Shown here piece after piece: positions 1-27,441 of a stretch of DNA of 64,000 nucleotides. Position 1 is the first letter of the stretch. Each line of letters opens with the position of its first letter. Made by a program: the position numbers and the translations under genes. The notes under the pieces are model-generated. The model saw nothing but the letters and a program-made list of their open reading frames with translations, made no database searches and was not told the origin of the DNA. This stretch comes from Blasia pusilla (lineage: Eukaryota), in assembly GCA_050084515.1 (NCBI GenBank), contig CM114271.1, positions 22,134,001 through 22,198,000 on the forward strand. The letters run 5' to 3'.

Positions 1-1289
1 AGGCAATTTTTAGGGTTAAATTGTTCAAACCCTAAACCAGCCGCCACACCGGAGGCGGCCGTCGTTGTCATAGTCACCATCAATGGTCAATGGTCAATCA
101 TCACTGTTGACGGTCAATTGTTACCATCAACGGTCTGTCGTCACCATCAACGATCAACCGTGACCGTCAACAGTCCACCGTCCAGCGTTGTTGTCCCCTA
201 GCGCTGCTCAAAGCTGCATTCAGACGTTGTCCACCCTTTGGTTGCCATTGCCGCCATTACAAAGTGGAGGGTCTTCCACGACCACCGTTGATTCTATGAC
301 TTGCGCCGCCTCTACCTACTTTGGTTTGGCCGCCACCGTCATCGCAATTTGGTCATCAACTAGTGATGGCCGGTGACCTCGGATTATGGTGTTTGAGTTT
401 TCATTTCATGTTGCTATGTTGGGATTGGTAGCCGCTCGACGATAATCGAGTACCGTGCGGTGACGCCCGTAGCCGCAACGCGCCGCCAATTTCCGCGCCA
501 TGCCGCATGTGGCCGCACCGCACCGTCTCGATCGCGGAGCTGCTCCTTCACTAAGGTGCAGAGCATGTGAATTGCTGATTCAGGAGGGTATGCCACCAAG
601 TGCCGTGCCCTTTGTAGCCGTTCCGTGCTGCACCGCACCACTGGACCTGCACCGCACATCAAGGAGGTTTGAGCAGCGTCAGTACGAGAGGAGTAAACTT
701 GCTGATTGGAGGAGTTGTCTTCACAACCGAGTTGGGGTGGAGATTTGCAGTTGATGAGGAGCGATATCGACATTATTGTCAAGTTACCCATTATGGTCTC
801 TTAACTTGCAAGTGTGAGGGATTTTTGGATATTGGGAAGTTATTTGGGATATTGGGTTTCGTGTTGATCCTAGTAGCATCGATGACGTATGGTGTTTAGG
901 GGACATAGACGTGCGTGGGATGTCCAGAGTTGAGGATGGTTTATCGATGAGACGATAGATCGGTTGATTTTCCGCACCACGCTACTTATTGCCGCACAAC
1001 ATACGTCTCAATGAGAGAGTGTAGATTGAGTGTCACATGTTTAGTTTGATTACTCACGAGATTGAGAGTGATCGTGTGAGAGGGGCACGAGGGCCATCAC
1101 GGCCTCCTTTCGGGATTTTGAGAGCCAAGGTAGTGGACCTGAGAGTAGCTATGGAGGGTTTACCCGGAGTGGTGCGAGGTTTCGAGGGTCTCCACGTGAG
1201 AGACCACTTGGATCTCCTTCTGTGTTGTCTTCTGACAAGAGTGAGCGTGTAGAGGAGTGTGTTAGTGATCCACCGTACACTTTGAGTGG

Positions 1290-2900
1290 TCCTACCAGTT
1301 GGGCATACGAGATGGAGGACCACGCAGATTTTTGGATGTTGTAGGCACTATAGAGCTACACGACTTGATTGTGGAGTTTAGGAGTTGGTGTGACTTACAA
1401 CGGGCTAGGAACTCTAGCGAGTTCAACCCCGTTTAGAGCATGGAACGGTATGTTCTAGAATTTAGAGGGGGCGCCCATGGACGATTACCATGAGTTCTCC
1501 CACAGATATGCCCATGAGGTTGAGGCATGGCAACTCTACTATGACCCACAATATGTGTCATAGACGGATCGGTTTCCAGATGAGGAGGAGGAGTCAGGAG
1601 AGGCTACTTCCTCTTCCACTAGTGATGTTTTAGGAGGGGTCAGTCGCACAAGAGCAGTTGGACCATCTAGTTGGGTTCGTCCCAAGTTCAACCGCGTGGT
1701 TCAGTTCCTTGTTGAGTTGAGGGCGAGCTACTAGAGGGTACGGACGGAGAAGTTACAGAGCATCCACGACTTCTAGAGGCGTGCGGGTAAGAGTTTGCGT
1801 GAGGTTTACACTCGCTTGCGCCGGTTGATCAACGTCACTCAAGGGTGACGGAGGCTTAGGCTATCCAATCATGGTACGGGATGTTGGACTGTGTGGACAC
1901 GGGTGCGGGAGAGGGTGCTTCTGATGAACACCTCCCCTACTTTGAGAGATGTTCTTAGGACCACCAAGAACATTGAGTGCAACATGGCGGAGGAGAGCGT
2001 AGCTACCATGGGTTCTGGGCGAGAGCAGTCACGATTGTCTGCACCACCTGTTCAGCAACGTGGACTCCGAGATAGGTTGATTGTGGCACCACGAGCTTAG
2101 GGAGGATACTGGGAGGCCATGCCACAGAGACTTGCGCTTTCATATGCGGCTTAGCAGCAGCCATCATCTGGTGGAGCCCATCATCAACGCGATTGCACTC
2201 GTCAGGGTCATGGACGTGTGCCTCAGCATGGAGGAAGAGATGGTGTTGCACTAGGAGGTTATAAGTGTGACTATTTTAAGAGGTATGGTCATACACGCGC
2301 CAGGTATTTCAGTTTACATCCTGAGTTACATCCGGACCGAGGGCCAGAGAGGGCACCAGAGCGAGTTGCTGGTCCGGGTGGGGCCAGAGGTCGTGCACCA
2401 GGTGATCCCGTTGGGGGACAAGGAGATGGAGTTTCCCAATAGGGTGGTGGAGCTGCGCGTGGAGGAGGTAGAGTCCCACCACCTAGACGTGTCGAGGGAG
2501 ACGCCAAGCGTGAGGCTGGGATGGCTGCTGAGATACAGCAGCTACACGAGCAGATTTTGGCTATGGCATTGAGGTTACCCGATGTCGGATCCGTGGCGTT
2601 GACATCATATGGAGCAGCTAGAGACATGGAGGATCCTGGTTGGATGTGCGGGGTTGGCTAAATGGAGGCCGTCGTAGTTGTGACGTGTGGAGCAGCTCCA
2701 AAGTGGGATCCATAGCGAGGGGAAGCCAGGAAACACACTAGGCTTCCTCAGTCTTTCACGTTGTCTGAGGCGATGAGGACCCCATCAATGGGTCTTGATC
2801 AGAGTTCCTGGAGAGTTGGTGATTTTGTTGGTGTGCAGGCATAGAGAGTGATGGCAGAAGCGAGTGCGACTACTCCTATTGCTGATGCTTAGGAGGGGCA
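1290..2900 (+). pseudogene. gag-like region with two degenerate CCHC knuckles (copy 1)
   Basis: Matches gag of copies 2 and 3 (GTIEL..F..EF, LR..F.R..GESLRE..TRLRRLI, CDYF..YGH...YF). Many stops. Boundaries approximate. Confidence 0.7.
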
Positions 2901-3275
2901 TGTGTCCAACAAATTGTTAAGGGCGGCCACCGTTGTGTATCGAACTCCTTTATTTTTTGCTTCCGATGTTACCACGTTGGGAGGTACGCCCGCCGAGGTT
3001 TTTCGGCTGGCCGGTACGCTATGTGAGTGTGGAGTTCGAGTTCCTATATCACGTTCAGAGGTGATTGCAGAGGAGATGATGGACCTGCCCTTGGAGCCGA
3101 TGCTTGGGCCGTCCACGTCAGATTCATGGGAGGCTGAGGCACTGAGCATGTGCAAACCGCGTGGAGCGAGACATTTGCACTAGAGTGTGACGGGTCACAG
3201 GAACCCAAGGTAGGCAGGAGTGCTGCTATGACCCCTTTGGACACCATCTCGATTGTGTGGTGCATCCCACAGAAG

Positions 3276-4240
3276 GGCATTCGGGTGTTGGATCTCTTTG
3301 GAGGGATCAACACTAGGTTAGCTGTTGTTTTGCACGTTGGAGTGCACATTCAGCAGAACCTCTATGTGGAGATTGATGATGTTGCGAGGCGCTTCACTTC
3401 ACCATGTTGAGTTGTTACGCCTCCATTTTCCCGACTTGTTGTTTGCGTCCACCATTCAGGGTTACCAGAGTTCTCTACCAAGGGACATTTCATTGTTGGG
3501 GGTGCAGGACTTGGATCGGGTAGGGACCATAGACTTGGTCATTGCTGGTTGGCCGTGTCAGGGCCAATCGAGTGATGGACGAGGTAGCGGGTTAGCTGAC
3601 ACTCGGTCGAGGTTATTTAGGGAGATGATGCGGATCTTGCGATATTTACAAGTGCATCAGTCTCATTCTCCAACATACATTTTGGAGAATGTGCCAATTT
3701 TGGGCAATTTGAGGTCCTGTGCGGTGACGAGTGCACATCAAGTGCGCGCATGGATCGGCCCAATAGCGTTGTTAGATGCGGCGAGTGTGGGTTCACGAGC
3801 ACAACGCCCGCATCTTTGGTGGACCAACTTGGTACCACATGAGGTATTGCGGAGGGCTTATGCGAGAGTGGAGCGTCCCTTGGTGGATTCTATATTGGAT
3901 CCGGGCCATCGATCACAGGCAGTAAGGCATGATGATCGACCGTCGTTGACTGAGGTCAACAAGATTGGCATGCCACGAGCCGCCTTTCCTTTCACATTGG
4001 TGAGTTTTCCCGCTTCCTATGCATTCAAGGAGGCTGGACCTAGCTTGCTTTGGGATGACTAGGTATAGAGGTTGGTGGAGCCCAATGACGATGAGCGAGA
4101 GCAAGCGATGGGATTCCCCACAAGAGTCACTATCGAAGGTATCACGACGTCATGTCTTGGATCAAGCAATGGACTTGAACTGCTTGACATGGATTTTCAG
4201 CTTGGGAGTAGCTGAGCGACTTCATTTGAGGATGCGATAG
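3276..4240 (+). pseudogene. C5-cytosine DNA methyltransferase domain within pol (copy 1), DNMT3-like motif order
   Basis: Motif I VLDLFGGI, II YVEIDD, IV DLVIAGWPCQG (catalytic PC intact), VI YILENV, VIII RAQRPHLWWTNL, IX EREQAMGFP, X SRRHVLDQAMD. Frameshift near 3400 and stop at 4060. Confidence 0.92.
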
Positions 4241-4619
4241 ATCACAAAAGTTACGTTGGTGAGCCCCATGCCTACCAATACGGTTGAGGCAATGGCTGGG
4301 GGCGAGACCCGAGGAGATTGACACACCATGGGTGATCGGGAGAGACACCCTTGGACTTCTTGAGATGTTTTGCAGGTATGCCAGGAGATGATAGCCACAA
4401 CATCAAGCGTGGTTCGGAGTACCGCACGTGGAGAGGGGAGTTCTATTGTCTGAGACGGGGTTGCATCATAGCAACCACCGACATCCGCGCCGAAGAGTCC
4501 TATCGTAATCACGAAGGAGACTTGGGATCCAGATATGGGCCCTAAGTTGACGAGAGGAGAGCGGCGTCGAATATACCAATTCCTTAGAAGTTATAGGAGT
4601 TGTTGTGCATTTAGTATGC

Positions 4620-5900
4620 ATGATTTGGGTACACTAAAGGGTCTAGGGATCCGCATTGAGTTGTTGAGTGACACGCCGATATTCTAATGACCCTAAGGTA
4701 TAGTGACATGGAGAGGACTCTGATTCATAGTAGGAGCCAAGACTTGGTTGGATCAAGACTAGTGAAGATGTTGCATGGAGAGTATGCATCTGCCACTGTC
4801 ATGCCCGCTAAGAAGGATGTGCATGGCAATTCAACGGATAGGCGAATGTGTGGAGATTACCGACCTTTCAATCGGCAGACAAAGGCCGATAGGTATGCCA
4901 TGCCCAGCCCTGAGGAGATCTTTGATGTTATTCGGCATGCAAAGGTCTTCAGTTCCTTGGATTTGCAAGCCGGATACCATCAACTGCCTATCAGATTTGA
5001 GGGCAGGCAGAAGACGGCATTTTGGGGCATCGATCCTCACAGGAAGGATTGTTTGTACCAGTGGCGGTTCTTACCATTCGGGTTAAAAGAACGCCCCGAT
5101 TGAGTTTCAGAGGGTCATGGATAGGATCTTGGCAGGTCTGGATTTTGCTAGGTGTTATATTGATGACATCGTAATCTTTAGCGCCAAGGTTGAGGAGCAT
5201 GAGCGACATCTAGAGGAGGTATTTCGACAATTGCAGTTACATGGGCTGAAGCTAAATCCAAGAAAATTCAAGTTCTTCTACGACCAGATTGAGTACTTGG
5301 ATCATACGATATACCTTGGGAGCCTTGGTGTGCAACATACAAAGGTAGAGGCTATTTCACACATTCCACGCCCTACAAATGTGAGTCGAGTTCGTGCATT
5401 CATGGGATTGGCAAACTTCTATCGACTATAGTCAAAGGTTTCAGTTTGATTGCGAAGCCGCTAACCTTGATGACCAAGGTGGATCAAGAGTGGCACTAGG
5501 GGATGAGCAAGAGAGAGCATTTCAAATGCTCAAGGACACATTGACGTCCGCGCCCATATTGAGGAGCCCGATCAAGGGTCGTCCTTTCCAGTTGCATACC
5601 GATTGGAGCATGTTGGGGCTTTGAGCCGTGCTCACCCAGCATGACGATAATGGTAGAGAGTTTGTGGTGGCTTATGCTAGTCACTTGAAAAACGCTGTAG
5701 AGATGAAGTATAGCTTGTATCAGGGTGAGTGCTTGGCTGCAATGTGGGTTGTCGTACATTTCAGATGTTATCAATTCGGCAATCACTTTACCATCATTAC
5801 TGACCATCAGCCACTTAAGTGGTTGATGCAGTCCAACAAGCTTACGGGGAAGCTTACAAGGTGGGCCCTTTTGTTGTAGGAGTATGACTTCCAGGTGGTG
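4620..5900 (+). pseudogene. Ty3/Gypsy reverse transcriptase and RNase H (copy 1)
   Basis: RRMCGDYRPFN, LDLQAGYHQ, KTAFW, LPFGLK, CYIDDIVIFS, FQLHTDWS, VAYAS, TDHQPLKWL. Frameshifted. Confidence 0.93.
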
Positions 5901-6239
5901 CATACACCTGGGACGCAGATGGTTTGAGCCGTAACCCATGCCTGAGTCAGCGAGATGCAACTAGAGCTCCTTGGCATGGTGAGAGTGATGAGGAGTTGGT
6001 GCCAGGATGGCATGTGTCAACCTATTTGGGCTTGTAAGTTATGGAGAGCGAGATTGCGGAAACTTTGATGGCGAGGTCTGATGGAGAGTCCTTAGAGGCC
6101 GGTAAGGAGACGACACGTGGCCGAGACATTCACGACGATGGAGTGGTCTTGGAGTACCTGCGTACTGACAACGTCGCAAGCACAGTGGATTCTAGAGAAC
6201 GGGATCGGATCCTACAAGGAGCCAGACGGTTCCGGTGGG

Positions 6240-7367
6240 AGGACACACATGTGTTGCAAGTGTGGGAGGATGGTAGAGTGCGTGTAGTGCCTCATCCTTC
6301 GTATCCTCCCACCAGAACCAAAGGCCTTAGACACTCCAACTCCACAGTTGCATCCACTTCCGATCATGGGTTTAGGTTATAGATGGTCAAGCACTTCTAG
6401 AAATGGATAGAGTTGGTTGCATTTCCTGACAAAGCAAGTGAGGGAGTTTCGTATGCCTTCCTAGATCGAGTGTTGAGTCATTACATCACACCAACTTGAG
6501 GTGTTGACAGACCAAGGTACAAAGTTCCACGTGGAGTTTCAGGCCTTGTGTGATCAGGCACTGATGGACCACCGCACTACTTCGCGAGATCATCCTGAGG
6601 CGGATGGACTAGCGGAGCGGGTTGTGCAGACAGTGAAGAGAGGACTACGCAAGTGTGGCTTGTAGCGAGGTTACCTCGGAGATTGGGACCTTCAGTTGCC
6701 GTGGTTGGCGATGGGATACAGATTCAGCAGGCAAGCATCCTTAGCGTCTTTCTCACCGTACTTGTTGCTTTATGGCCAAGAGCCAGATTTACCAGCGGCC
6801 ATTTGTCGAGATACTAGTGAGGTGTTGAAGCTTGATGACTCTGATGTATGGATGCGAGCATGTTCTGAGAGGGCTGAGTTGTTTCGGAGAGTGATGCCCA
6901 TGGCGTTTGAGAACTTGGCAATTGCGCAACACCAGGATACGTTGAGGTATGCGACTATTCAGGGAGGTGGTTATCAGCCTACTATCCGCGGGTTTCATCA
7001 GGGAGACTATGTCTACTTGCAGCAGACGGAACCCACAACCTTGGATGTGATTGCAGGGCACACCATCTTGAGAGTGCGTGAGGTTTTGCCATTCGATGTT
7101 CTCTTATTGGAGGGACGCGATGGTATGGTTTGGAAGGACCATGTGCGTAATTGTGCATCATGTCATCTTTCGAACATTGAGGTTATAGTTGATCCGAGCT
7201 TAGCAATAGTTCTTGCAGGATTGCGGTGTATGTTGTGTGGTTTCGCCTGTGGTGCAGCTACTATGCTAGTCTATGATGGGTGTTCGAGAGGATGGCATAT
7301 GACATGTTTGACGCCAACTCTCACTAGGGTTCCTTAGGGACGATGGATGTGTCCCAGATGTACATAG
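6240..7367 (+). pseudogene. DDE integrase remnant with C-terminal PHD finger (copy 1)
   Basis: TDQGTKF, HPEADGLAERVVQTVKRGL, SPYLLLYG. PHD CMLC...(C>Y)DGCSRGWHMTC...WMCPRC at 7227-7361. The HHCC part is deleted relative to copy 4. Confidence 0.88.
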
Positions 7368-7530
7368 AGTAGGTAGTTCCGACTTCTACATTCTGAATTG
7401 TGTCAAGAAGGCGACTAACGATGGGGCCACATGAGCACCCGACCTTCTTGCTCTTAGCGTCCGAGAGATGTATATCATGGTAGGTAGGGATAGATGGTTA
7501 TCTGGAGTTAGCGGGACCTAACCACCAACT

Positions 7531-7540
7531 AGGGGGGCGA
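7531..7540 (+). promoter_or_regulatory. Polypurine tract, copy 1
   Basis: AGGGGGGCGA directly before repeat B1. Equivalent tracts at about 25920-25928 and, on the minus strand, about 34055-34065. Confidence 0.8.
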
Positions 7541-8314
7541 TTGGAGATATTTTGGTACTTCTTGTCTCATTGTTTGGATGCCATGAGTTACCATGGGATT
7601 GTGTGTGTTTGTGTGTGTGTTCGGTGACAGCGATGTATGTTGTGTAGCGATGTGTGTACGCACGACAACTGTCACGTCTTTTAGGATAGATGGGTGAGAT
7701 CTAGTAGAGTGCGCTTGTGAGTAATGGAAGACGTGCTCAGTAGGTTGAGGATGACTTGTTGAGGCCCCGAGAAACCTGAGCGAGCAGGTTTCCCCTTCGT
7801 TTCGGCTGATTTGGAGCCATATTGAGGAACTTACTATTTTAGGTAAGTTCCATTTTGAGTATATGAACGACTTGATATTTTTGGTAAGTGACCCTTGACC
7901 TTCTACATCAGGTCAAGAGCCAAGGAGGTGACTTGAGAGCGTAGGTTACCATGGAGAGAGCTTGGGAGAGGGGAGGGGTATACCTCAAGGAGAGAGAGCT
8001 TGAGAGCTCATTCTCTCTTTGTTGAACCTCTTGGCATGAGGCAGCGGAGCTATGGTCTTGCTTGCCTTGTGTGTGTAATCCAAGCCTCATATTAGGAGAG
8101 TGGGTTTAGTTTGACATTGACAGACAAATGTGATAATGCACACATATGAGAACTATAGTGTTGTGAGAGAGATTTGATCTTATTTTATTCGAGATATTTT
8201 GGTACTTCTTCTCTTGTTGTTTGGATGCCATGAGTTAGCATGGGATCGTGCGTGTTTGTGTGTGTGTTCGTTGACAGTGATGTATGTTGTGTAGCGATGT
8301 GTGTGCGCACGACA
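7541..8314 (+). repeat. Split terminal repeat of copy 1: B1 (7541-7667), AC, A2 (7670-8187), B2 (8188-8314)
   Basis: B1 and B2 are 127-bp direct repeats (TTsGAGATATTTTGGTAC...GCACGACA). A2 starts TGTCACGTC and is homologous to 21538-22046 (minus) and 26059-26567. Confidence 0.92.
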
Positions 8315-8499
8315 TGCACGTACTCCAAGACCACTCCATCGTCGTGAATGTCTCAACCACTTGTCATCTCCTCACCGGCCTCTGGATCTAAGGACTCTCC
8401 ATCAGACCTCGCTATCGAAGTCTCAATAATCTGGCTCTCCATAGCCAACAAGCCCAAATAGGCTGAGGCATGCCATCTTGGCACCAACTCCTCATCACT

Positions 8500-9900
8500 C
8501 TCTCCATACCAACGAGCTCCAATCACATCTCGCTGACTCGGGCACGGGTTACGGCTCAAAATATCTGCATCTTGGTTGAACGTCCTAGATCTATGCACCA
8601 CTTGGAAGTCATACTCCTACAACAAAAGAGCCCATCTCACAAGCTTCCCTGTAAGCTTGTCGGACTCCATCAACCAATGGTTGATGATCAGTAATGATGG
8701 TAAAGGGGTTGCCGAATAAATAACACCTCAAATGTGCAACAACCCACGGTGCAACCAAACACTCACTCTCATACGAGCTATACTTTGTCTTTGCAGCGTT
8801 GTTTGAGCGACTAGCGTAAGCCACCATGAACTCTCTACCATCATCGTCATGCTTGATTAGCACAGCTCCAAGCCCCAACATGTTCCAATCGGTATGCAAT
8901 TGGAAATGACGTCCCTTGATTGGTCTCCTCAATATGGGCGCGGACGTCAATCTGTCCTTGAGAAACTCAAATGCTCTCTCTTGCTCATCTGCCCAATGCC
9001 AATCCGGATCCACCTTGGTCAGCAAGATTAGCGGCTTCGGAATCGAAGTGAAACCCTTGACATACCGTCGATAGAAGTTTGCCAATCCCATGAATGCATG
9101 AACTCGACTCACATTTATAGGGCGTGAAATGCGTGAAATAGCCTCTACCTTTGTCTGCTCCACACCAAGGCCACCTTGGTATATCGAATGACCTAGGGAC
9201 TCAATCTCGTCGTAGAAGAACTTGCACTTGCCTAGATGTAGCTTTAGCCCATGTAACTACAATCGTCGAAACACCTCCTCTAGATGTCGCTCATGCTCCT
9301 CAACCGTGGCGCTAAAGACTACGATGTCATCAATATACCTAGCAACATCCAGACCTGCCAAGATCCTATCTATGACCCTCTAAAACTGAGCCGGGGTGTT
9401 CTTTAACCCAAATGGTAAGAACCACCTGTGGTACAAACAATCCTTCCCGTGAGGATCGATGCCCCAAAATGCCATCTTCTGCCTATCCTCCAATCTAATA
9501 GGCAGCTAATGGTATATATCCGGCTCGAAGATCTAACAAACTGAAGACCTTTGCATGCCCAATAGCATCAAAGATCTCCTTAGGGGTGGGCATGGCATAC
9601 CTATCGGACTTTGTCTACCGATTGATAGGTCGGTAATCTCCACACATCCCCCTATCTATCTAGTTTCCATGCACATTCTTCTTGGCCGACATGATAGTGG
9701 CAAATGCATACTCTCCATTCGAGATCTCCACTATCTTGCTCCAACCAAGTCCTGGCTCCTACTCTGAATCAAAGCCCTCTCCATGTCACTATATTTGTAA
9801 GGTTGTGGAAAGAACGGCGTATCGCTCGACAACTCAATGCGGATCCCTGGACCCTTCAGCATACCCAAATCATGAATACTAAATGCAAAACAACTCCTAT
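8500..9900 (-). pseudogene. RT and RNase H (copy 2)
   Basis: ORF 8609-9163 FMGLANFYRRYVKGF, FQLHTDWN, VAYASRS, TDHQPL. YIDD near 9325-9337. Confidence 0.9.
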
Positions 9901-10289
9901 AACTCCTAAGGAACTAGTGTATCCGACACCGTCTCCTCTTGTTAACTTAGGGCCCATATGTGGCTCCCAAGTCTCCATTGAGACTACGGTAGGACTCTCC
10001 GGTTTGGATGTTGGTGGTTGCTATGGTGCAACCCCATCTCGGACAATAGAACTCGACTGCTCCCCTGCAACCAACTACAAACTTTGATCTTCACGTGTAG
10101 TACACGCAACGACACCTCAATGTTGTGGCTATCATCTCATGGCCTACCTGCAAAACATCCCAAGAAGTCCAAGGGTGTCTCTTTCGATCACCCCTCGTGT
10201 GTTGATCTCCTTGGGTCTTGCCCCCAGCCACTACCTCAATCGTCTTGGTAGGCATGGGGCTCACCAACGCAACAATTGTAATCTGTCGC

Positions 10290-11270
10290 AACCTCAAACA
10301 ACATTGCTCAGCTACTCCTAAGCTGAAAATCCATGTCAAGTAGTTCATGTCCATCGCTTGACCCAAGACATGACATCGTGATACCTCTGATAGTGACGGT
10401 ACTTCCGTCACTCCTATGGGGAATCCCATCGCTTGCTCTTGCTCATCAGCGTTGGGCTCCACCAACCGCTGTATTTGGTCATCCCAAACCAAGCCAGGTC
10501 CGGCCTCCTTGAATTCATAGGAAGTGAGAAAACTCATCAATGTGGAAAAGGCTGCTCATGGCATGCCTATCCTATGGACCACAATCAATAGTGGTCGATC
10601 ATCGTGCCTCATTGCCTCGGATCAACGATCTGGATCCAGAATAGAATCCACCAACGAATCGGAGGGGCGCTCCACTCTCGCATACGCCCTCCGCAAAACC
10701 TCATATGGCACCAAATTGCTCCACCAAAGACGCATGCGATGTGCTCATGAACCTACACTCGCGGCATCTAGCAACACTATGGGGCTGATCCATGCATGCA
10801 CCTGATGTGCACTGGTCACCACGCGGGATCTTATATCGCCCAAAATCGACACATTCTCCAGAATGTATGCTGGAGAACGAGATTGATGCTCTTGTAAATG
10901 TCGCAAGATCCGCATCATCTCCCAAAATAACATGGACCGAGAGTCAGCTAACCCGCTATCCCGTCCAACACTCGACTGGCCGTGACACAGCCAACCAGCA
11001 ATGACCAAATCTATGGTCTCTACCCGCTCCAAGTCTTGTGCCCCCAGCAATGAAATGTTCCTCGGTAGGGAAATCTAATACCCCTGGATGGCATACGCAG
11101 AAAAAAAGTTGAGAAACCCAAGACGTAACTGCGCAAAATGGTGAAGTGAAGCATGCCTTGCAATATCATCAATCTCAACGTTTATACCACTGCACACGCA
11201 CTCTTGCCTGCAAAACAACAGCTAAATCAGTGTTGATCCCTCCAAAGAGATCGAGAACGCGTATACCCTC
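10290..11270 (-). pseudogene. C5 DNA methyltransferase domain (copy 2)
   Basis: VLDLFGGI near 11235-11260. DLVIAGWLCHG (PC mutated to LC), YILENV, LLDAASVGS, EQAMGFPIGVT, SRCHVLGQAMD. Confidence 0.9.
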
Positions 11271-11443
11271 CTCTGGGATGCATCATTCAATCGGGTGGTG
11301 TCCATAGGGATCATAGTAGCACTCTTGGCTACTTTAGGTTTCTCTGACCCATCACGCTCTAGTGCAAACATCTCACTCCACACAGTCTACACATGGTCAG
11401 CGGTTTAGTGCAAAGCAACTTACTCGAGCTCCACAATGGCACC

Positions 11444-11755
11444 TATGAAGATTGACTTATAATCAAGCTCATGAGACACCTGAATTGCTACATTTTACTC
11501 ACACGAAGTAGGGAAGATTAATCTTGGTTAGTCACTTAAGCACGATTATCTTAACTAGGGTTAGTTAATCACAATTAGTCTAACTCGAGACTATGGTTAA
11601 GGTTAGGGTTATGTTTGCTTGTACATACCCTACATAATTGAGAAGGGGATGAGTCTCCACTCATTATCTCATTGCAAATTTGTTCTCCATGATGGTGTGT
11701 GTGTGTGTGTGTGAGCCGTTTCCCACCAATTATGCTTCTTTAGCAGTTTTCCACA
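11444..11755 (+). repeat. Copia 5' LTR
   Basis: Direct repeat of 16899-17210, followed by the PBS. Confidence 0.93.
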
Positions 11756-12271
11756 TGGTATCGGAACGATAGGAGAACATCACTTGAAATTCTTGGTGTT
11801 TGAGGAGAGAAGAAAGGCAACAGAAGGCACAATTTCAGTTTGGGAGAAGGAAATTTGGTTCAGAACTCAGTAGGTGCAGATTTCAGGTAGAGCTTTAACA
11901 GTGATAAAACTTTGGAGGTATTTTTTAGGGCTTCCAAGTCGATTAAGTTATCTGGGTCCGCGGTAGCTAGAACGATGCTAAAGGCTTCTTATAGACTTCT
12001 TGTAGAGCTCTTAAAGAGCTTTCCAACACATCCAAAATCGCTCAATTCTGACATTCTGAGCTCCTGCAATAGCAATTTTAGTGTAGGAAAGTGCAATTAG
12101 TGAAGAATAGTTGTGTTGTTTGCTCTGTACATGCCAATTTCGACTAGTTCTTTCATATATTTGATCAATTTTGGAAAATTTCATATCGATTTCTGTGTAG
12201 GAGTGATCTATGCTTCAATTGGAGCAGTAGGAGAGCTTGAAATTATATTTTTGTGAGTGAAATAGTTCGTT

Positions 12272-15200
12272 ATGGAGTATTCCTCTACAACAATCATAGG
12301 CGAGAAGCTAGATAAGCAGAATTACAATATCTAGAAGTTTCGCATGAAAAAATTTCTCATGGGTCAAGAACTATGGGAGCTTGTCATATATGATGAGGCC
12401 AAGCCAGAAGGTGACTCTCCAGACTTGAATGTTCGTGCCTGGAACAAACGCGCAAGACAAGTAATCCACTACATTTCAATAACGATCAGTTTTCCAATGA
12501 TATGTCATATTCAAGATGTTGATACTTTGAAGAAGACCTGGGATGCATTGGAAAAGCTGTTCCACACATCTACCAAGACCAGAAAGGTTTAATTGAAACA
12601 GCAATTGAACGAAGTGAGGAAAGGATCTTGGAGCATCAATGATTATATTTTGAGTATCAAACACAATGTTGATCAGTTGAATAACATTGGACTGACAGTA
12701 GAAGATGATGATCTCATTTTGTTCACTCTTCAAGGCCTTCCAAAGGATAACAAGTCCTTTGAGACCTCTATCTCTGTAAGAGAAAAGTATCCAACCTTTC
12801 AAGAGTTAGTTCCTCTGTTAATCACTGAAGAGATGCGCCTAGTAGGCAGCGGTATCTCGTCTAGTCTGCAAGAGAGTGCGATATTTGCAAGTTATGGATC
12901 AAACAAAGGTAGGGGTTATGGCAAAAATTTTTGTGGTCATGGTGGATATCAAGCATATGGAGGAAGAGGCACTCAATATAACGTCCCTCAATCAACTACG
13001 AACCAGTACTAGACATAATCACAAAGTGGTGATGGTGGAAATCGTAGAGGTCAAGATCAGCAGCAAAGGGTCCTTGGATCTTGCAATTATTGTGGGATAA
13101 AAGCTCACTATGCAAAGTTTTGCTTCAAGAAGAAGGCACATATGAGAATAGGAGCCTTACAACGACAAAACTATGTGGAGCAACAACACCAAGAGTAGTA
13201 CCAAGAACAACAACATTCACAAACGGAACATATCTTGGTCATGACTCGTCATATGGGAGCAATGGTCAAGAAAGACTCGACAACAGATTGGTACATTGAC
13301 TCTGATGCATCAAATCACATGACCTCACAAGCTAAATGGTTCAGTAGTTTGGAGCCGGTGAATGATCCTTCAATTGTTCTCATAGGAGATGACACTCAAC
13401 ATCATATCATGCATACCGGTAAAGCTCCAATAGCATCATATGGTCTTCGGGCTTTTGGAAATGTTCTCTATGTTCCTACCATTGCAAGAAACCTGATCTC
13501 TATAGGAGAGATAGTAGAACAGGATTATCAAGTGAAGTTTAACACAGATTGTTGTTTCATTCAAACAATGGATGACTAGACTACGATAGCCAAAGGAACT
13601 AGATCTGGAAGAATGTTCAAATTAGATGTTTCTATGCTAAAGATTCAAATAGCAATGTATGGTCAAACCAACCAACAAGTCACAAATCTAAATGTGTGGC
13701 ATAAAAGAATTCGACGTATGAATCTTCAAAGATTACAGAGTCTTTCATCATCTAATATAGTAATATGACTCCCTAAATTAGCAAGTCTTGCTACGTTAGA
13801 GGTATGTCCTGCTTGCTAATTTGGAAAACAAACTAGATTTCCTTTTCTAAAGCAAGATAGAAGAGCATCCAGGATATTGGAGTTGATCCACAGTGACAAC
13901 ATCACAACATAGCCTTAGTGGTTGCCAGTACTATCTTTCATTTATTGATGACTTCTCTAGGTATATATGGGTATACTTTCTAAAAGCTAAGTCAGAGGTA
14001 TTCTCAATGTTCCAAACATTGAAAGTTCTAGTAGAGAAGCAAACTGGAGAACACATTCTGAAATTGGAGGAGAGTATGTCATGACCATACGGATTATGTC
14101 GTAGAGTATAGTGTGCTAGTAGAGGCCATATCTTATGTAGGGCCGCAGTCTCTAGGTAGAGATGCGATTTCATACATAGGGTTGGGGGTTACTCAGTTGA
14201 GGGTGACTTTTCCAGTAGGGCCCGCTCTTAGGTTGGAGGATATAAGGTGGAGTACACTCAAAGAACAGTTAGTTCTTTGAGTTGAGCCTGTTGCGTTGGG
14301 AGTTAGCCTTGGTAGTGAGTAGAGCTCTTGGCTATGGTGTTTTCCGCAAGCTTCGACCTAGATTCTCCCATCGTGGAGTGGGTTTGGCTTGATTCTATGT
14401 GATTCTATACGTGTTTTATGAGAGTAGGTCTTTCACGAATTTCTAGTTGTGGTACACTTGTGTTTGTGGATGCTCTCGTCTATGTTATGTATGTATGTGA
14501 GTATGATATGTCAGCGATGTATGTTGTATGACGATGTGGACTCGCACGACAAGTATCTTTCAATAGAGTTTGATGACTATTTACTTCAGAATGGCATCCA
14601 ACGTCAAGTGACTTGTCGTTATACTCCACAAGAAAATGGAGTGGCTAAGAGAAATAATCAACATATTTATGAGGTGGCACAAGCTATGCTCAATGAGAAG
14701 AACATACCTAAGGTGTATTAGGCAGAGGCTATAGCATGTGTAGTCTTCTTAATCAACCAAACTCTAACAGTAGGAGTTCATGATAAAACTCCATTCGAAG
14801 TCTTCATAGGAAGTAAACTTGATTTTTCCTTCTTGAAAGTTTTTGGTTGTATTTATTATGCTCATGTTCCTTGTGAGAGACATTAAAAATTAAACCCCAA
14901 GTCTAAAAGATGTATCTTCATTGGCTATGCTGATGGAACTAAGAGGTGTAAGTGCTACATTCCATCCTCTAGGCAGCTTATTATTAGTCAGGATGTTGTC
15001 TTTGATGAGCTAAAGTCATGGTATGCTCCATCTGAGCCTATTCCATCTCTAAACTTGACTATTGAGGGGGAGAATATGACTTTAAACCAACAGACATTGT
15101 CTTCAACTTTCCCAAGTACTAGTACAGGATTAGGAGAGGCCCACGATTCTTCAGTTAAATCTATGAGTCTATGGACGGGAAGAGTACGTATTCAGACTCT

Positions 15201-16911
15201 TGACACTAATCAGAGCTTGAATCAGGTGTCAGAGGCATCTACCTTCAAACAACAACTTCGTAGATCAAGTAGAGTTACACATCCAATTCATAGATTCATA
15301 AATGAACGTTTCATTGCGATACATCATGCATATATAATAACTACCCTTCAAGAATAGGAGTCGAGTTGTTTTGAAGAAGCTGCAAGTAAAGTCGAATGGA
15401 TTGAAGCTATGGAGGAAGAGCTTGCTGCATTAAGACATCAACAAACATGGGAGCTTGTTGATATACCTTCTGATAAATAAGCTATTGGTTGCAAATGGGT
15501 TTACAAAATCAAGCGCAATCAAGATGATACAATTAACACGTACAAAGTGAGATTGGTGGCTAAGGGCTATGCACAATAATATGGCATCGATTATGAAGAA
15601 ATATTTAGCCATGTTGCAAAGATGGCGACTACAAGAACAATGGTTGCAGTTGCAGTAAGTAAGAGGAGGAGATTACATCACATGGACGTCAAGAATGCCT
15701 TCTTGAATGGAGAACTATACGAGGAGGTATATATGACTCAACCACCTGGATACGAGCATCCCAAGTTTCCATTTCGCGTATGCAGGTTGAAGAAAACTCT
15801 ATACGGGATCAAAGAAGCTCCAAGAGCTTGGTATGGCAAGATTACATACGTCCTACAAGAATTGGATTTTAGGGTATGTGATTCAGACTCCTCGTTATAT
15901 GTCTTGAGGACAAGATCATAAGATTCTCATTGTGTTGTATGTTGACGATCTCCTGATTATTGGGAGTACTGAAGAAATGGTACAACAAGTCAAGCTTAAG
16001 TAACAAGCAAAATTTGATATGAAGGACTTGGGAGAACTCAAGTACTTCCTTGGTATAGAGTTTATCAAGGTTGGAGAAAGCATGTGCTTACTGCAACGAC
16101 TATATGCTCTTTATATGCTTTCAAAATATGGTATGACGACTTATAAGCCAATCTCTACACCGTTGGACCAGAGTATGAAGCTAAGAATGGATGAAGGAGA
16201 GTTGATTGCAGATTCTAATATGTATAGGCGCATGGTTGGAAGTTTCATCTATCTAACTATAACTAGACCAGATTTGAGCTATGTTGTTGGCCTAGTGAGC
16301 GAGTTTATGCAAGCACCTTGAAAACCTCACCTTGATGTTGTGAGGAGGATTATGCGATATGTGAAATTCTCTATTCAATTCGGGCTTCAATTTGAACCTT
16401 CTCCGAGTTTTCAATTACAAGGTTTCACAGATGCTGATTGGGCAGGAAGCGTGTCTGATCGACACTCCACATATGGTTATTCATTTACTTTGGGAAGCGT
16501 AGCTATAAGTTGGGCTTTAAAGAAGTAACCTACAATTGCTTTATCTTCAACAGAAGTTGAGTACATAGGAGCAACCAATGCAACATATGAGGCAGTGTGG
16601 CTTCATCGATTACTTGTTGAGATTGGTGTTAGTAACTTAGGACTAGTGTAATATATGCAGAAAATATTAGTAGCATCAAGCTTGCTAATAACCATGTGTT
16701 TCATGCTCGTACAAAGCATGTTGAGGTGCACTATCATTTTATCAGAGAGAAAGTGCTTGCACGAGAAATTGATCTTGTGTATATAGGTACAGATCAGCAA
16801 ATTGCTGACATCTTTACAAAAGCATTGTCTAGAGATAAGTTTGAGATGTTTAGAAATGATTTAGGCGTTAGAGTTATCGATATGAGCTTGAGGGGGAGTA
16901 TTGAAGATTGA
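12272..16911 (+). pseudogene. Copia gag-pol polyprotein (stops and frameshifts; integrase interrupted at 14077-14551)
   Basis: ORF fragments 12344-13579, 13893-14084 and 14552-16911 with Copia motifs. Confidence 0.92.
14077..14551 (+). mobile_element. Solo A+B terminal unit of Gypsy-DNMT family II, inserted in the Copia integrase
   Basis: TGTCATGACC...GCACGACA, homologous to 33478-33950 (minus). Flanked by AGTA/AGTA. Removing it with one TSD copy restores Copia IN GGEYLSIEF. Confidence 0.93.
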
Positions 16912-17210
16912 GTTACAGCTAAGCTCATGAGACACCTGAACTGCTATATTTGGTACTCACACGAAGTAGGGAAGCTTAATCTTGGTTAGTCATTTAAGCA
17001 CGATTATCTTAACTAAGGTTAGTTAATCACAATAAGTCTAACTCGAGACTTTGGTTAAGGTTAGGGTTATGGTTGCTTGTACATATCCTATATAATTGAG
17101 AAGAGGACCAGCCTCCACTCATTCTCTCATTGCAAATTTTGTTCTCCATAGTGGTGTGTGTGTGTGAGAGCTGTTTCCCACCAGTTATGCTTCTTTAGCA
17201 ATTTTCCACA
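16899..17210 (+). repeat. Copia 3' LTR
   Basis: Follows the PPT, direct repeat of 11444-11755, ends ...TTCCACA. Confidence 0.93.
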
Positions 17211-20200
17211 ACACCTCTCCTCCACAGAATGATGCGGCTACCATGATACTCCTCTCCATAGAAATTTCAAGAACAGGAGCGTCCTTTGCATGGACTGTCC
17301 CTCAATCAAATCACTAGGCCAAGTGATGGCGCTGCTAAATGTTGCTAAGATCGCCATCTCTCCTAGCCGTCGCTCGATCACTCCACCGATGAATTGAACA
17401 AGAAATAAGCTAAGGCGCCCTTCACCTAACTGCCATCTTGGTCTGTAGGATGCTAACTCCTCCCTGTAATCCAGGGAAATCCATATCGGGTACAATACTG
17501 CGCCACCAACCAAGACGTCGTAGGACTCTCCATCGGTCACTATCGCCTTGGCTCGCACCAGGCCCTCATCTGTAGGATGTGTCGGGAGAATCCTCACCAA
17601 AACCTGCTATCGGGTGATATATTGTGTGGTACTCATTCCATCCAAGGATATCTGTATTCGGAATGGACAATGCTCCACATGCGCTCTCGTCAAGCCCAAT
17701 CCTCTGAATGACACTTTCCCCAACATCAGGGATTGCGCTCCTTAATCCAACAAGATGCGCAGCGGACTAAGAACACTACCTCCTGGACTCACCAACTCAA
17801 AGACCTCTCCCCGGTTATCCAGCAATACAACATGAGGAGAAGCCATGGCACGCTCTATCGTGGATCTAGCGAGCATCTCCGCCATCCTAGCTGTCGCGGC
17901 CCGACCTGGACGGCCCGAGCATAGGCTCCAAGGGCAGGTTCATCACCTCTTATGCAATCACCCCTGAGTGTGACGCAAGAACACCAACTCTTTGGTCACA
18001 TAGCGTATACATAGCGGCGAGCTGAAAAACCTCCGCGGGCATTTCTCCCAACGTCATAACATCGAAAGCAGAAAATAAAGAAGCACGGTATAGAAGAGTG
18101 GCCCTCCCCAACAACGTGCTCGACAGATGCTCTTCCTGAGCATCAGAAATAGGGGTCGTTGCACTAGCTTCTCCCATCGCCCTCCGTGCCTGCACACCAA
18201 TAACATCACCAACTCTCTGGGAACTCTGATCAGGACCCATCAATGGGGTCTTCATCGCCTAAAACAATGTGAAAGATTGAGGAAGCATGGTCTGTTTCCT
18301 TGCTTTCCCCCTCTGTGGATCCAACTCGGCAACGGCTCCACGTGTTACAACAGCGGCGGCCTCCATTTGGGAAACCCCGCACATCCAACCAGGATCCTCC
18401 ATATCTCTGGCTGCTCCATATGACGTCGATGCCAGTGATCCAGCATCGGATAGTCTCAATGCCATAGTGGCAATCTGCTATTGTGGCTTCTGTATCTAAG
18501 CAACCATCCTAGCTTCACGCCCGGCGTCTACCTTGACGCGTTTAGGTGGTGGAACTCTACCTCTTCCACGGGCAACTCCACCATCCCCTCGGGAAACTCC
18601 AGCTCCTCGTTCCCCAACGGGACCACCTAGTGCATGAACCCTGGGCCCACCATGACCGGCAACTCGCTAGGGTGCCCTCTTTGGCCCTCGGTCCGGACGT
18701 AACTCAAGGTGTAGGCAGAAATACCTGGTGTGACCGAACTTCAGACAATAGTCACACTGATAACCTCCTGATGCAGCACCATCTCCTCCTCCCTGCTCGG
18801 GCGCGTGTCCATGACCGTGACGGGTGCAATCGCACTGGTGATGGGCTCCGCCACATGCCCAACAAACAATCGTAGGCAGTTGCTGCTGAGCCGCATATGA
18901 GGGCGCATGTCTCTGTGGCACGGCCTCTCGATATCCTCCCTGAGCTTGTCGTGCCACAAACCTATCTTGGAATCCACGTTGCTGCCCTGGTGGTGCAGAC
19001 AGTCGTGACTGCCCTCGCCCAAAACTCATGGCTACGCTCTCCTCCGCCATGTTGCACTCAATGTTCTCGGTGGTCCTAAGAACATCTCTCAACGTAGGTA
19101 AGGTGTTCATAAGAAGCACCCCCTCCCATACATGTGTTCGCAGGGTTCGATCCAGCATCGCCTAGCATGATTGGATAGCCTAGGACTCTTTCACCTCCTC
19201 AGTGATGTTAATCAACCAGCATAAGCGGGTGCAGGTCTCACACAAACTCTCACCCGGGCGCCTCTAGAAGTCGTGGATGCTCCGCAACTTCTCCATCCCT
19301 ATCCCCTCGTAGTTCGTCCGCAACTCAGCAAAGAACTCAACCACGGGGTTGAACCTGGGATGAACCCAACCCGACTGGACGGTGCAACTGCTCCAATGAG
19401 ACTTATCCCTCCTAAAACATCATTGGTGGAAGAGGAAGTTGCCTTTTCCTCCTCATATAGGAACGGCTCCGTCCATGACACATAGTGTGGATCATAGTAG
19501 AGTCGCCATACCTCAATCTCAGAGAACTCATGGTAATCGTCTATGGGTGCCCCCTCTAGGTGCTAGAACATACCGCTCCATGCTGTGAATAGGTTGAACT
19601 CTCTAGAATTCCTAGCCCAGTGTGAGTCACACCAACTCCTAAACTCCGCAATGAAGTCGTAGGCTCTATAGTGCCAATAGCACCCGTAAACCTATGTGGT
19701 CCTCTACCCCAATCTTCCATCTCATACGCCCAACTGGTAGGACCACTCAATGTGTGTGGTGATGTACTAACAAACTACTCTACACTCTCCCCCTTGTCTG
19801 AAGACGACACAAAAGGAGATCGAGGTGGTCCCTCACATGGAGACCCTCGAAACCTCACGCCACTCCGCATTAACCCTCTAGAGCTACTCTCAGGTCCACC
19901 ACCTCGCCTCTTAAAATTTTGAAAGGACGTCGTGATGACCCTCGTGCCCCTCTCACGCAATCACTCTAAATCTTGCGAGTAATCACTCTATCACTCAACT
20001 AAAATGCGGCACTCAATCTGCACTCTCTTAGTGAGACGTGTGGTGTGCCGCAACAAGCGGCGTGGTGCGGCAAATCAACTACTATTGTCTCATCAAAAAA
20101 ACATACCCTCAACTTTGGACATCCCACACACGTGTATGTCCCCTAAACCATACATCAATGATACTCTCTCCATCAACACGAAACCCAATATCCCAAATAA

Positions 20201-21537
20201 CTACCCAATACCCGGAAATCCCTAACACGTGCACGGAAAAAGACCATGATGGGTAACCTGAAAATAATGTCGATGTTGCTCCTCAGCAACCGTAAATCTT
20301 GACCACAACTCGATTGTGAAGACAAACTTCTCCAAATAGCACGTTGTACTCCCCTGGTAGTGACGATGCTCAAATCTCCTTGATGTGCGGTGTGGGTCCA
20401 ACGATATGGTGCGGCACTAGCGGCACGAAATGGCTACAAACGGCTCGGGAATGGGGTGCGGCACTCAACGGCATATCCTCCTCAACAGTAATACAAAATC
20501 TGCGGTGAGGGTGCAGCTCCATGATAGAGATGGTGCGGTGCGGCCACGAGCAGTAGGACGCGGAAATCTCCTGCGCGTTGCGACTACGGGCTTCCACCTC
20601 AAGACATAGCAAGCCGGGAAGAGAAATGCGACCCCATCAATCCAAAAAGGTCACCGTCCAATTAACAACGGTGAAGAACGCCGTCGACGGCGGCCAACGG
20701 ACGGAGCAAGGACGGCCCCTATGGACAATGAAAGTCAATAGTAATTACAATATCTTTCATGTGGGTAAAAATGGTTCTACTTTGGCCTTATTCAAAAATT
20801 GAAAGTTCTTTGTTTTTTCCCACTCCACTAACTCCTTAAACTAAGGGTCAACTCACTAAAATTACTCACATTTAGCTTATACTCCACTAAGCCCTATAAA
20901 TATTGGGTCAACACCCACTAAATAAAGTTTCCACTCACTTTAACCTCAAGATCCTAAGTTTCACTTGTCCTTTCTCCACTAATAAAAGATATTTTTTAAA
21001 ATTTTCTACCTCACCTAAAAATTTACCAAGAATTTTGAAATTTGCTCCTTCCTCATACGGTGGCTATGGCAGCTCCACAAAAATGATCATTACTTCTTGC
21101 TCCCATGTTCAAATTGTGCATAGTTTCCCAATCTACAACATTGTTAAATCAGCTTCTTCATACAACCTTCCAATAAAAACTCACAAGGATTGTCATGCAT
21201 CCCTTCAATCTGCACTCCTACAAAAACTTCAATAGCGCTTCCGCGCTGATTTCTCCCAACAAAAATTGCAAACCTGTAAACACAACAACCAGCAAGCTAG
21301 AAGGTACTCCCAAGAGCACTAGCATGGGACAAAAAATCCCCATACTCAATTTCTAACAAAATTTTGGCAACGCTTCCGTGTGCCACTCTCCCGTACAAAA
21401 AATCATCAAAGGAATCAGCAAAATTGAGCGGCTCTTGCTCTGGTGAGCACTCCCATGAACTGCTGAATGGGGAATACAGTCCCCAACCTGCAACAAGAGC
21501 GAGTGACCAGCAAGCTCCCCCATTGAAACTCTCTTTG

Positions 21538-22046
21538 TAAATCAAGTAGATCTCTCATCAACATCTCACACCAAGCTCTCCTTGGTATACACTCTCTCTC
21601 ATGTCAAACCAAACCCACTCTCCTAATGAGAGGCTTAGGTTACACACACAAGGCAAGGAGGACCATACCTTCGCCGCCTCATGCCAAGAGGTTCAACAAA
21701 GAGAGAATGAGCTTTGAAGCTCTCTCTCTTGGAGATATACCCCCTTCCCTCTCTCAAGCTCTCTCCTCGGTAACCTATGCTTGCAGGTCACCTCCTTGGC
21801 TCTTGACTAGCTATAGCGGGTCAAAGGTCACTTCCCAAAGTGGAAAGTCAACTATACTCCAATGGAAACTTACTCGAAATAGTGAGTTTCTCTATATGAC
21901 TCCAAATGCACCAAAAAAAAGGGAAAACCTTATGTCTCAGGTTACCCGTGGCCTCAGCAGATCCTCCTCAACCTCTTGAGGCTCTTCTCTAGTATCTCTG
22001 AAGGCGCTCTACTAGATCTCGCTGATCTATCCTAAAAGTGGTGACA
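21538..22046 (-). repeat. 5' terminal repeat A1 of copy 2 (no B segment)
   Basis: Homology to A2 of copies 1 and 4 stops at ...TGATTTA, exactly where B2 begins in those copies. Confidence 0.9.
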
Positions 22047-22833
22047 CAAGACTAGTGGAGATGTTGCATGGAGAGCATGCATGTGTTAATGTCATGCCTG
22101 CCTAGAAGGATGTGCATGGCAACTAGACGGATAGGCAGATGTGTGGAGATTACCGCCCTATCAATCCGCAGACAAAGTTCAATAGGTATGCCATGCCCAC
22201 CCGTGAGGAGATCTTTGATGCTATTGGGCATGCAAAGGTCTTCAGTTTGTTAGATCTTTGAGCCAGATACCATCAAGTGCTTACCAGATTGGATGATAGG
22301 CAGAAGACGGTATTTTGGGGCATTGATCCTCACGGGAAGGATTGTTTGTACCAGTGGCTTACTATTTGGGTTAAAGAACACTCCGCTTGAGTTTCAAAGG
22401 GTTATGGATAAGATCTTGGTAGGTCTGGATTTTTCTAGATGTTATATTGATGACATCGTAGTCCTTAGCGTCACGGTTGAGGAGCATGAGCGACATCTAG
22501 AGGAGGTGCTTCGACGATTGGAGTTACATGGGTTCAAGCTACATCCATGCAAGTGCAAGTTCTTCTATGACCAGATTGAGTACCTAGGTCACACGATATA
22601 CCTAGGTGGCCTTGGTGTGCAACAGATGAAGGTAGAGGCTATTACACGCATTCCATGCCTTACAGATGTGAGTTGAGTTTTTGCATTCATGGGATTGGCA
22701 AACTTCTATCGATAGTACGTCAAGGGTTTCAGTTCGATTGTGAAGCCGTTGTCTTTGCTGACCAAGGTGGATTAGGAGTGGCAATGGGAGGATGAGTAGG
22801 AGAGAGCATTTGAGCTGCTCAAGGACACATTGA

Positions 22834-26699: not shown

Positions 26700-27110
26700 A
26701 CTACTCAACGATAGAATACGTGGATATCATGACAAGGAGAAATATTAGTCTAGGCTTGGATTCATCTCCATTTAGAAAGCTTGATAGTGGATCCCCACAC
26801 TTTCTCCTCCACTTCACTTGAGGCTTTCCCTTTCCTTCTCTCTCTATTTCCCACAAGTACCCTAGTTTGGAGATCCTGTTGCACATTGGGAGGACCTTCA
26901 TACATAATTTGCCATGATGAATATCTTGATTCCCATTCTTTTTCTTTCATCTATCTTTTGAAAAATGCTCCATCATCCATGTGCTATGATATGTTTTCAT
27001 CAAATAGAAACAACATTTGCACTGCCATTTGCTTTATGTTTCACTTTCCACTTGTATTTCTCCCCAATATTCCTTCATGATCTTTTGGAGTTCTTTGGCT
27101 TTGGTCACGA
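26700..27110 (-). pseudogene. Possible hAT transposase N-terminal BED zinc-finger remnant
   Basis: My own translation of the minus strand: KWQCKCC..MKTYHSTWMMEHF...HGKLCMKVLP, resembling the BED spacing C-x2-C...R..H...C. Contains a stop. Confidence 0.35.

Positions 27111-27384: not shown

Positions 27385-27387
<3 letters not shown>

Positions 27388-27438: not shown

Positions 27439-27441
<3 letters not shown>

Follow-up and report, generated by a model that had tools for sequence, protein, structure and literature searches.

The stretch at positions 7227–7367 (plus strand) of the window, by which we mean the whole 64 000-nucleotide sequence of Blasia pusilla analysed here, is the decayed C-terminal PHD finger of a retrotransposon integrase of the Gypsy-DNMT3 type. 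In the lineage to which the element belongs the finger is functional and under purifying selection between subfamilies, and we lean, with confidence a little above even, towards regarding it as an integrase-tethered reader of unmethylated H3K4. The element concerned (copy 1) begins 1014 bases before the window, ends at position 8314 and has the order A1, gag, protease, DNMT, reverse transcriptase (RT), RNase H (RH), integrase (IN), PHD, B1, A2 and B2, where A and B are repeats. Its features, and those of the insertions around it, are as follows (positions are those of the window).

1014–514 bases upstream of the window (L031:8986–9487): 5' repeat A1 of copy 1
462–3140, plus strand: gag-protease (PR) region, decayed, limits approximate
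3385–4266, plus strand: C5 cytosine DNA methyltransferase, DNMT3-like, decayed, with PC and ENV motifs present
4696–5918, plus strand: RT and RNase H, frameshifted
6200–6974, plus strand: zinc-binding and core region of a DDE integrase, decayed, limits approximate, with matches to Ty3 and foamy virus integrases
6975–7181, plus strand: SH3/Tudor-like C-terminal barrel of the integrase (model residues 147–215), with ~20 linker residues between it and the PHD
7227–7364, plus strand: PHD finger of copy 1, broken (from Pfam, model and translation); terminal stop at 7365–7367
7531–7539, plus strand: purine run, polypurine-tract-like, directly before B1
7540–8314, plus strand: 3' repeat block of copy 1, ending in GACA (B1 7540–7667; 2-nt spacer 7668–7669; A2 7670–8186; B2 8187–8314)
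8315–8318, plus strand: 4-bp target site duplication TGCA of copy 1, with its counterpart at the 5' end, ahead of the window
8315–22046, minus strand: copy B, from the same lineage as copy 1, into which copy 1 and the Copia element inserted; extends upstream of the window
11446–17210, plus strand: Copia LTR retrotransposon, used as control (LTRs 11446–11755 and 16902–17210)
14077–14551, plus strand: solo A-B unit of the copy 3 subfamily within the Copia element, target site duplication AGTA
22047–26695, plus strand: copy 2, 3' part, into which copy B inserted; frameshifted PHD at 25618–25763
33478–42311, minus strand: copy 3, second subfamily, A-coding-B-A-B, inside a Helitron-like element, target site duplication GATA
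34225–34362, minus strand: PHD of copy 3, frameshifted

The translation of 7227–7367 is a PHD-type stretch ending in WMCPRCT and a stop. An earlier note on this DNA had claimed that a C4-H-C3 finger ending in W-x-C-P-x-C terminates pol here, and had named a PF00628 search and a structure prediction as checks; both bear out the family and the fold. PF00628 matched the copy 1 finger, scanned as a short piece with X at stops, with 35.2 bits (E = 1.3e-08) and a 277-aa piece of the copy 1 integrase (P0001) with 29.9 bits, both exceeding the 24 bits of the Pfam gathering cut-off, and W-x-C-P-x-C occurs twice in the window against 0.11 expected per shuffled window (100 shuffles). The finger model (built on 101 sequences) has a pLDDT of 91–96 across the finger, and its top structural match is the ATXR5 PHD–H3 complex (5vab; Z = 8.7, rmsd 1.5, 50 aligned), a score that is the best obtained with VIA and barely exceeds the background range stated for that tool. 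By pLDDT and this match the model has the cross-brace PHD fold, and the finger is of the canonical C4-H-C3 type. The part of the claim that fails for copy 1 is the integrity of the pattern: Tyr replaces the third Cys (7272–7274), and an in-frame TAG at 7335–7337 ends the open frame ahead of the WxCPxC tail, so that the copy 1 finger is a true PHD by fold and family but is broken. The finger noted at 25618–25763 is likewise present in copy 2 (PF00628, 15.8 bits for the first half), but there it is frameshifted after the His and has a stop ahead of its tail, and the frameshifted tail reported for copy 3 was found, the shift lying after the fifth Cys. None of the three window copies has all eight Cys4-His-Cys3 zinc ligands within one open frame; such fingers are found in 7/30 own-genome loci, without a stop, and in relatives.

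The finger stands directly behind the integrase barrel at the end of pol. The note had described this as the place of the chromodomain in chromoviruses, and the arrangement is indeed that of a chromovirus from the same genome (L054), which has SH3_Tf2-1 at 159–220 and Chromo at 246–295. The barrel matches, among others, the C-terminal domain of the foamy virus integrase (PFV, 4bac; Z = 6.5), the linker from barrel to PHD measures 19–21 aa in the 173 relatives measured, and rve and H2C2 domains were detected in copy 3 and in relatives. In REM1 the PHD reportedly occupies a separate antisense frame. At the end of the barrel (window 7140–7170) there is also a HxxNCAPCHL motif, in which one Cys is invariant and Pro, His and Leu are nearly so and which is possibly an extra metal site or a structural clasp.

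A PHD is present in 210 of 223 relatives, ranging from liverworts to chlorophytes, a share that is biased upward because the query contained the PHD (the 223 comprise 81 and 150 partly shared matches and 2 cluster members). The PHD and the SH3 barrel each have a dN/dS of 0.14 between subfamilies, compared with 0.16 in the integrase core and 0.22 in the DNMT; within a subfamily the values for PHD, barrel, core and DNMT are 0.69, 0.56, 0.46 and 0.70. The pairs compared are non-independent (106 pairs for the DNMT) and synonymous sites are near saturation between subfamilies. A functionless passenger, or a Cys-rich tail arisen by chance, describes dead copy 1 alone, and for the lineage we consider it highly improbable. 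It could draw on the three window copies being all broken and on the Tyr at the third Cys in 12 of 41 own-genome matches, yet it is contradicted by the dN/dS between subfamilies and by the retention of the finger among relatives. The Tyr itself appears to result from decay after insertion, since the change falls on a CHG-context site and its carriers (13 of 32 copies) are unclustered (permutation P = 0.22) in a star-like tree; a sub-lineage spreading with a broken finger was rejected on the same absence of clustering. Copies of subfamily 1 are ~10% apart and carry transitions at rates of 0.124 (CG), 0.136 (CHG) and 0.032 (CHH), and the repeats of copy 1 differ from each other at 40/517 and 10/128 positions: copy 1 is an old, methylated, dead insertion.

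Among named relatives, the closest belong to the liverworts Marchantia (74%), Calypogeia and Riccia; named carriers include Coleochaete, Pleodorina and Tetrabaena, and relatives also occur in Sphagnum. In a quick integrase tree of 87 rows, which has neither a true root nor labelled references and in which 43 of 82 inner branches are open, support is 95 for a group of the own copies with Calypogeia and Riccia and 93 for one of the terminal-PHD types, and the PHD lineage (SH-aLRT 92) stands apart from one own-genome chromovirus family (99). Across 40 stretches of 10 kb, spaced evenly along C1–C8 of the 390-Mb genome, the lineage accounts for 19.8 ± 5.1% of the sequence and is strongly clumped, 4 stretches being nearly pure and 19 without a DNA match (L071–L110). 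The same genome holds 1636 candidates for chromodomain elements, of which 150 were scored, all above the cut-off (L051–L070). Relatives of the element are transcribed in the sense direction over the whole element: three stranded RNA runs (one study, of an organism that is possibly another species) each gave 5133–5665 reads on window 1–8400, mostly 85–95% alike and about nine in ten sense, covering all 30 bins, and 5–8 reads per run were 99% alike to that interval. Several annotated DNA methylase or PHD 'genes' of Marchantia and Sphagnum are pieces of this lineage (P0289–P0293, P0003, P0298).

What the finger would read can be judged from its neighbours and its residues. Its sequence neighbours in the PDB are CHD4, PHF12, KAT6A, DPF3, KDM5 PHD1, ATXR5 and PHF21A, whose PHD fingers are mostly readers of unmethylated K4. 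In readers of K4me3 the cage Trp stands two positions before the His; among the 184 of the 210 PHD-bearing relatives that could be scored, this position is Gly in 166 and Trp in 1. Asp follows the third Cys in 173/184, and the PxGxW loop is present in 142/184. The finger thus shows the features of an H3K4me0 reader, namely no cage Trp, the Asp after Cys3 and a PxGxW pocket for H3A1. The fold, the Asp, the PxGxW loop and the lack of Trp two before the His are shared with the fingers of ATXR5/6, KDM5 PHD1 and the KAT6A/DPF type; the finger of the window lineage differs from these in being fused to an integrase and in mostly lacking the second acidic contact to R2, the position after the fourth Cys being Asp in just 16/184 relatives and Ser in 38 of 41 own-genome matches. 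The PHD of ATXR5 is described as recognizing unmethylated K4 through contacts that include the H3R2-binding Asp44 (PMC5499861), which by residue numbering would correspond to this very position.

The methyltransferase lies upstream. PF00145 matched the DNMT region of copy 1 with 37.3 bits, its best PDB match is DNMT3C (weak, E = 0.0034, with HhaI close behind), and the motifs PC and ENV are mostly kept across rows. An in-frame TAG followed by CARYYA (window 4469–4477, plus strand) separates gag-PR-DNMT from RT-RH-IN-PHD; the stop is conserved in 24/24 rows and the full CARYYA in 23 (two rows, L014 and L042, are one place). As CARYYA is described as a read-through motif (PMC4132726, PMC3441728), the TAG-CARYYA is a likely read-through stop, which would probably place the methyltransferase at Gag-level dose. 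From the observed fold, family, position and selection of the finger, its co-occurrence with a DNMT and the conserved stop context, we give slightly better than even credence to the following mechanism, in which an integrase obtained by read-through docks via its PHD on K4-unmethylated nucleosomes and avoids active promoters. In the active ancestor, read-through of the leaky stop behind gag-PR-DNMT would have yielded RT-RH-IN-PHD, from which the protease would release the integrase together with the PHD. The PHD, if it behaves like the fingers it resembles, would bind the free, K4-unmethylated N-terminus of H3 and tether the integration complex to nucleosomes away from promoters marked by H3K4me3. 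It would work in the manner of a chromodomain, yet would sense the absence of an active mark. Only a weak site bias is to be expected, since the K4-unmethylated state covers most of the genome.

The note had further proposed that one element encodes both a chromatin reader and a DNA methylation writer, by analogy with the PHD-like ADD reader of DNMT3 enzymes. Their presence in one element stands: PF00145 lies upstream of the finger, and 40 of 41 informative PHD-bearing polyproteins carry a DNMT. Their coupling is weakened by the leaky stop and by the type of the finger. An ADD domain combines an all-Cys GATA-like knuckle with a PHD-like finger on the methyltransferase chain; this identity was rejected, as the finger is C4-H-C3 and a stop, RT, RNase H and integrase lie between it and the DNMT. 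We therefore regard as improbable a reader–writer module in which the PHD would steer or activate the DNMT of the element in ADD-like fashion, so that cDNA or insertion would be methylated only in H3K4-unmethylated chromatin. Such a module would accord with the co-carriage, with the selection on the DNMT (dN/dS 0.22) and the retention of its motifs, and with the ATXR5 finger, which is reported to act largely on cofactor binding of its enzyme and not on nucleosome binding (PMC5499861), an observation that also tells against the preferred tether reading. Of 64 relatives spanning RT to integrase, moreover, 37 have their DNMT placed after RNase H and before the integrase, 36 of them (36/64) with the PHD in the same frame; in 5 it precedes RT, in 21 the sequence begins too far downstream for a call, and 1 is without a DNMT. 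However, the conserved stop parts the DNMT from IN-PHD, so that most DNMT would be made without the finger, and 23 of 24 DNMT matches in the protein search are to proteins that have no RT. The two DNMT placements are 26–40% identical to each other, a range overlapping that within placements, which fits one domain that moved; because the distance from finger to barrel is fixed while the DNMT occupies two different places, the finger appears to travel with the integrase. In addition, the long relative P0203 has a PHD without a DNMT, and the similar decay at CG and CHG sites, with CHH lower, fits ordinary host silencing. With the C4-H-C3 finger and the conserved leaky stop between it and the DNMT, ADD-like coupling is not the simplest reading. 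The DNMT may methylate cDNA, a role that de Mendoza et al. proposed for the elements they described.

In algal-type relatives (P0022, P0049, P0071 and others), which have the DNMT between RNase H and integrase, a second methyltransferase-like domain (DPWxGxG, SPWF) follows the PHD. Its Atlas neighbours are N6-methylase-like at 0.93–0.95, and the profile matched 76 of 86 long tails. There are 33 proteins with DNMT, PHD and this second domain, an EpiLTR-like set with PHD replacing the chromodomain.

Insertion sites bear on the preferred reading of the finger as an H3K4 reader that tethers the integrase. According to the note, every window insertion with an identifiable target sits in another transposon, and this is confirmed: copy 1 lies in copy B (interrupting its integrase; the PHD of copy B is upstream of the window, the copy being read from 22046 to 8315), copy B in copy 2, copy 3 in the Helitron-like element and the solo A-B unit in the Copia element. 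The Copia element and a 1.37-kb AT-rich insertion are, however, nested in transposons as well, and the use of nesting as a sign of heterochromatin targeting does not survive a control. Flanks of the family fall in detectable repeats in 23 of 41 cases against 165 of 400 random windows (one-sided P = 0.04), whereas those of Copia, in which no reader was seen, do so in 16 of 29 (Fisher P = 1.0 against the family); CpG observed/expected is 0.54 for the family and 0.55 for Copia in this comparison. Given the equal share in Copia, the enrichment needs no targeting: selection against genic insertions would suffice to explain it. No self-preference was seen (8 of 41 flanks in the own family against a background of 21.5%), nor any target sequence preference among the 41 target 4-mers, and an NCGN preference as in Phygy (PMC6317226) was not supported, CG, CA or TG standing in the middle of 6/41. 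Repeats were detected against ~765 kb of sequence, all shares being lower bounds. The 41 flanks come from 81 terminal rows after removal of duplicate fetches, window-adjacent junctions, internal-like junctions, rearranged nests and second ends; in the Copia control two rows are ends of one element, and its Pfam scan covered pieces only. The flank test, which is small and has chromatin marks outside its scope, removes the nesting argument for targeting and does not exclude targeting itself.

These sites are also what a non-selective tether would give, that is, a finger that stabilizes the complex or binds DNA, a host protein or any nucleosome, and raises efficiency without steering. We hold this to be possible, if clearly the less probable reading. 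Insertion sites indistinguishable from those of Copia, the lack of a preferred 4-mer and the missing second R2-binding acidic residue all agree with it, and the motif just ahead of the linker, with one Cys invariant and Pro-His-Leu nearly so, points to an additional structural role. It leaves unaccounted for the lineage-wide conservation of the H3 N-terminal pocket residues and the nearest structures, which are H3 complexes; the flank test, for its part, is blind to the marks concerned.

Among known systems, the element is best filed with Gypsy-DNMT3 by domain content and repeats. It has a DNMT3-like domain under purifying selection, the A-coding-B-A-B arrangement and the order gag-PR-DNMT-RT-RH-IN with a DDE integrase. 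KnitGypsy-Dnmt3 of Klebsormidium, described as a lineage-specific capture (de Mendoza et al. 2018, PMC5890265), is reported to share the DNMT3-like domain within Gypsy, the A-coding-B-A-B repeats and the purifying selection on the DNMT; as far as its description goes, the window element differs in occurring in a land plant, at ~20% of the sampled genome, and in its C-terminal PHD and the leaky stop behind the DNMT. The term 'PHD' is absent from the searchable main and supplementary text of that paper (figures aside). No match named as Klebsormidium was obtained in the protein searches, in which most matches are unnamed; a Coleochaete match reached 64%.

The statement of the earlier note that PHD-bearing Gypsy elements are known from green algae holds for Gypsy-7a_cRei of Chlamydomonas, whose Gypsy polyprotein includes a PHD finger (Craig et al. 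2023, PMC9940879). For this element the authors suggest targeted insertion or selection, with a 2.6-fold value for intergenic sites. By its description it has near-normal LTRs, and its legend names no methyltransferase, whereas the window element has split repeats and a DNMT. PHDs have been called widespread in retrotransposons (PMC6673714, PMC8557442). Chromoviruses, as characterized by Neumann et al. 2019 (PMC6317226) and Novikov et al. 2012 (PMC3350952), resemble the window element in that pol ends with a histone reader, putative in the window element, placed after the SH3 barrel of the integrase. The window lineage has no chromodomain (PF00385 was absent from the lineage sequences scanned with Pfam), its integrase falls on a separate long branch of the quick tree, and the split repeats, DNMT and leaky stop are not part of chromoviruses as described; its finger probably senses the absence of K4 methylation, whereas a chromodomain reads a methyl mark. 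The element would work like a chromovirus; we do not claim it to be one. EpiLTRs (bioRxiv 10.64898/2026.05.21.726589), reported to carry a chromodomain, DAM and a DNMT4-sister enzyme, similarly unite a chromatin reader and a DNA methyltransferase in one LTR retrotransposon; the window element differs from that account in its PHD and DNMT3-like enzyme and in having no adenine methyltransferase, the profile of the second methyltransferase finding no match in the own-genome loci examined.

Termini in the lineage are TGTC..GACA, and among 15 two-ended insertions the 4-bp duplication is exact in 10, has one mismatch in 3 and is unmatched in 2 (rearranged nests). A DIRS element with a tyrosine recombinase was rejected in view of the rve and H2C2 integrase, the TG..CA ends and the 4-bp duplications. 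A tRNA primer site, sought by eye after A1, was not evident. The internal B1-A2 junction is GACA-NN-TGTC (window 7664–7673 and 40 other rows), with a 2-nt spacer in 39 of 41 rows, some copies being counted twice: AC in 16, GT in 9, AT in 5 and GC in 5. AC and GT being reverse complements, and AT and GC mixtures of the two, the spacers hint at a junction remade from two mismatched 2-nt ends. Copies of the form A-B-A-coding-B, predicted if a circle were cut at either junction, were absent among the recovered 5' ends, of which complete A starts were available in only 5 of 20 stretches, both B1-ended copies having interrupted 5' ends.

The separate ingredients are published, in KnitGypsy-Dnmt3, Gypsy-7a_cRei and EpiLTRs as far as these are described; the finger is a known kind of add-on, and copy 1 is dead. 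In the openly accessible literature we found no PHD–integrase fusion in a DNMT-bearing or split-repeat land-plant Gypsy element, and no account of the integrase-PHD, leaky stop or land-plant abundance of this lineage; the available text of the REXdb paper contains neither 'PHD' nor 'methyltransferase', and that of PMC3350952 no 'PHD'. PHD-guided integration of retrotransposons was proposed two decades ago (Kapitonov and Jurka 2003, as cited in PMC9940879 and PMC6673714), and no tests of it were found in the literature examined. Binding and chromatin-map tests would be direct in this lineage, whose integrase-PHD is conserved and well bounded, with genomic candidates in the thousands and annotated relatives in Marchantia (Mp7g09570, Mp4g09160 and Mp2g26090). 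It also takes the range of Gypsy-DNMT3 beyond a single alga, into land plants and chlorophytes, and such copies inflate counts of host DNMT and PHD genes. A joint reading, speculative and in our view unlikely to hold in full, would see here an ancient, green-plant-wide Gypsy lineage with an H3K4me0-reading integrase and a DNMT3-like writer of its own (joined in many algal-type members by a second, amino-methyltransferase-like domain), the writer being dosed over the reader by read-through and the DIRS-like split repeats having their B-NN-A junction remade in each cycle and resolved by a DDE integrase; such a lineage would choose and pre-silence its landing sites and would have built a fifth of a bryophyte genome.

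The rest of the window was mostly scanned by long open frames alone (22835–24207, 26700–33477 and 42314–64000). The Helitron-like element, with Pif1 helicase domains, is split by copy 3 (32776–33351 and 42314–49160) and has a related piece at 62935–63481, and the AT-rich insertion in copy 2 (22835–24207) contains short internal repeats. A leucine-rich-repeat fragment, receptor-like and apparently decayed, lies at 50522–51136, and coiled-coil-rich open frames on the minus strand (57878–58810 and 61981–62655) matched no family over the cut-off.
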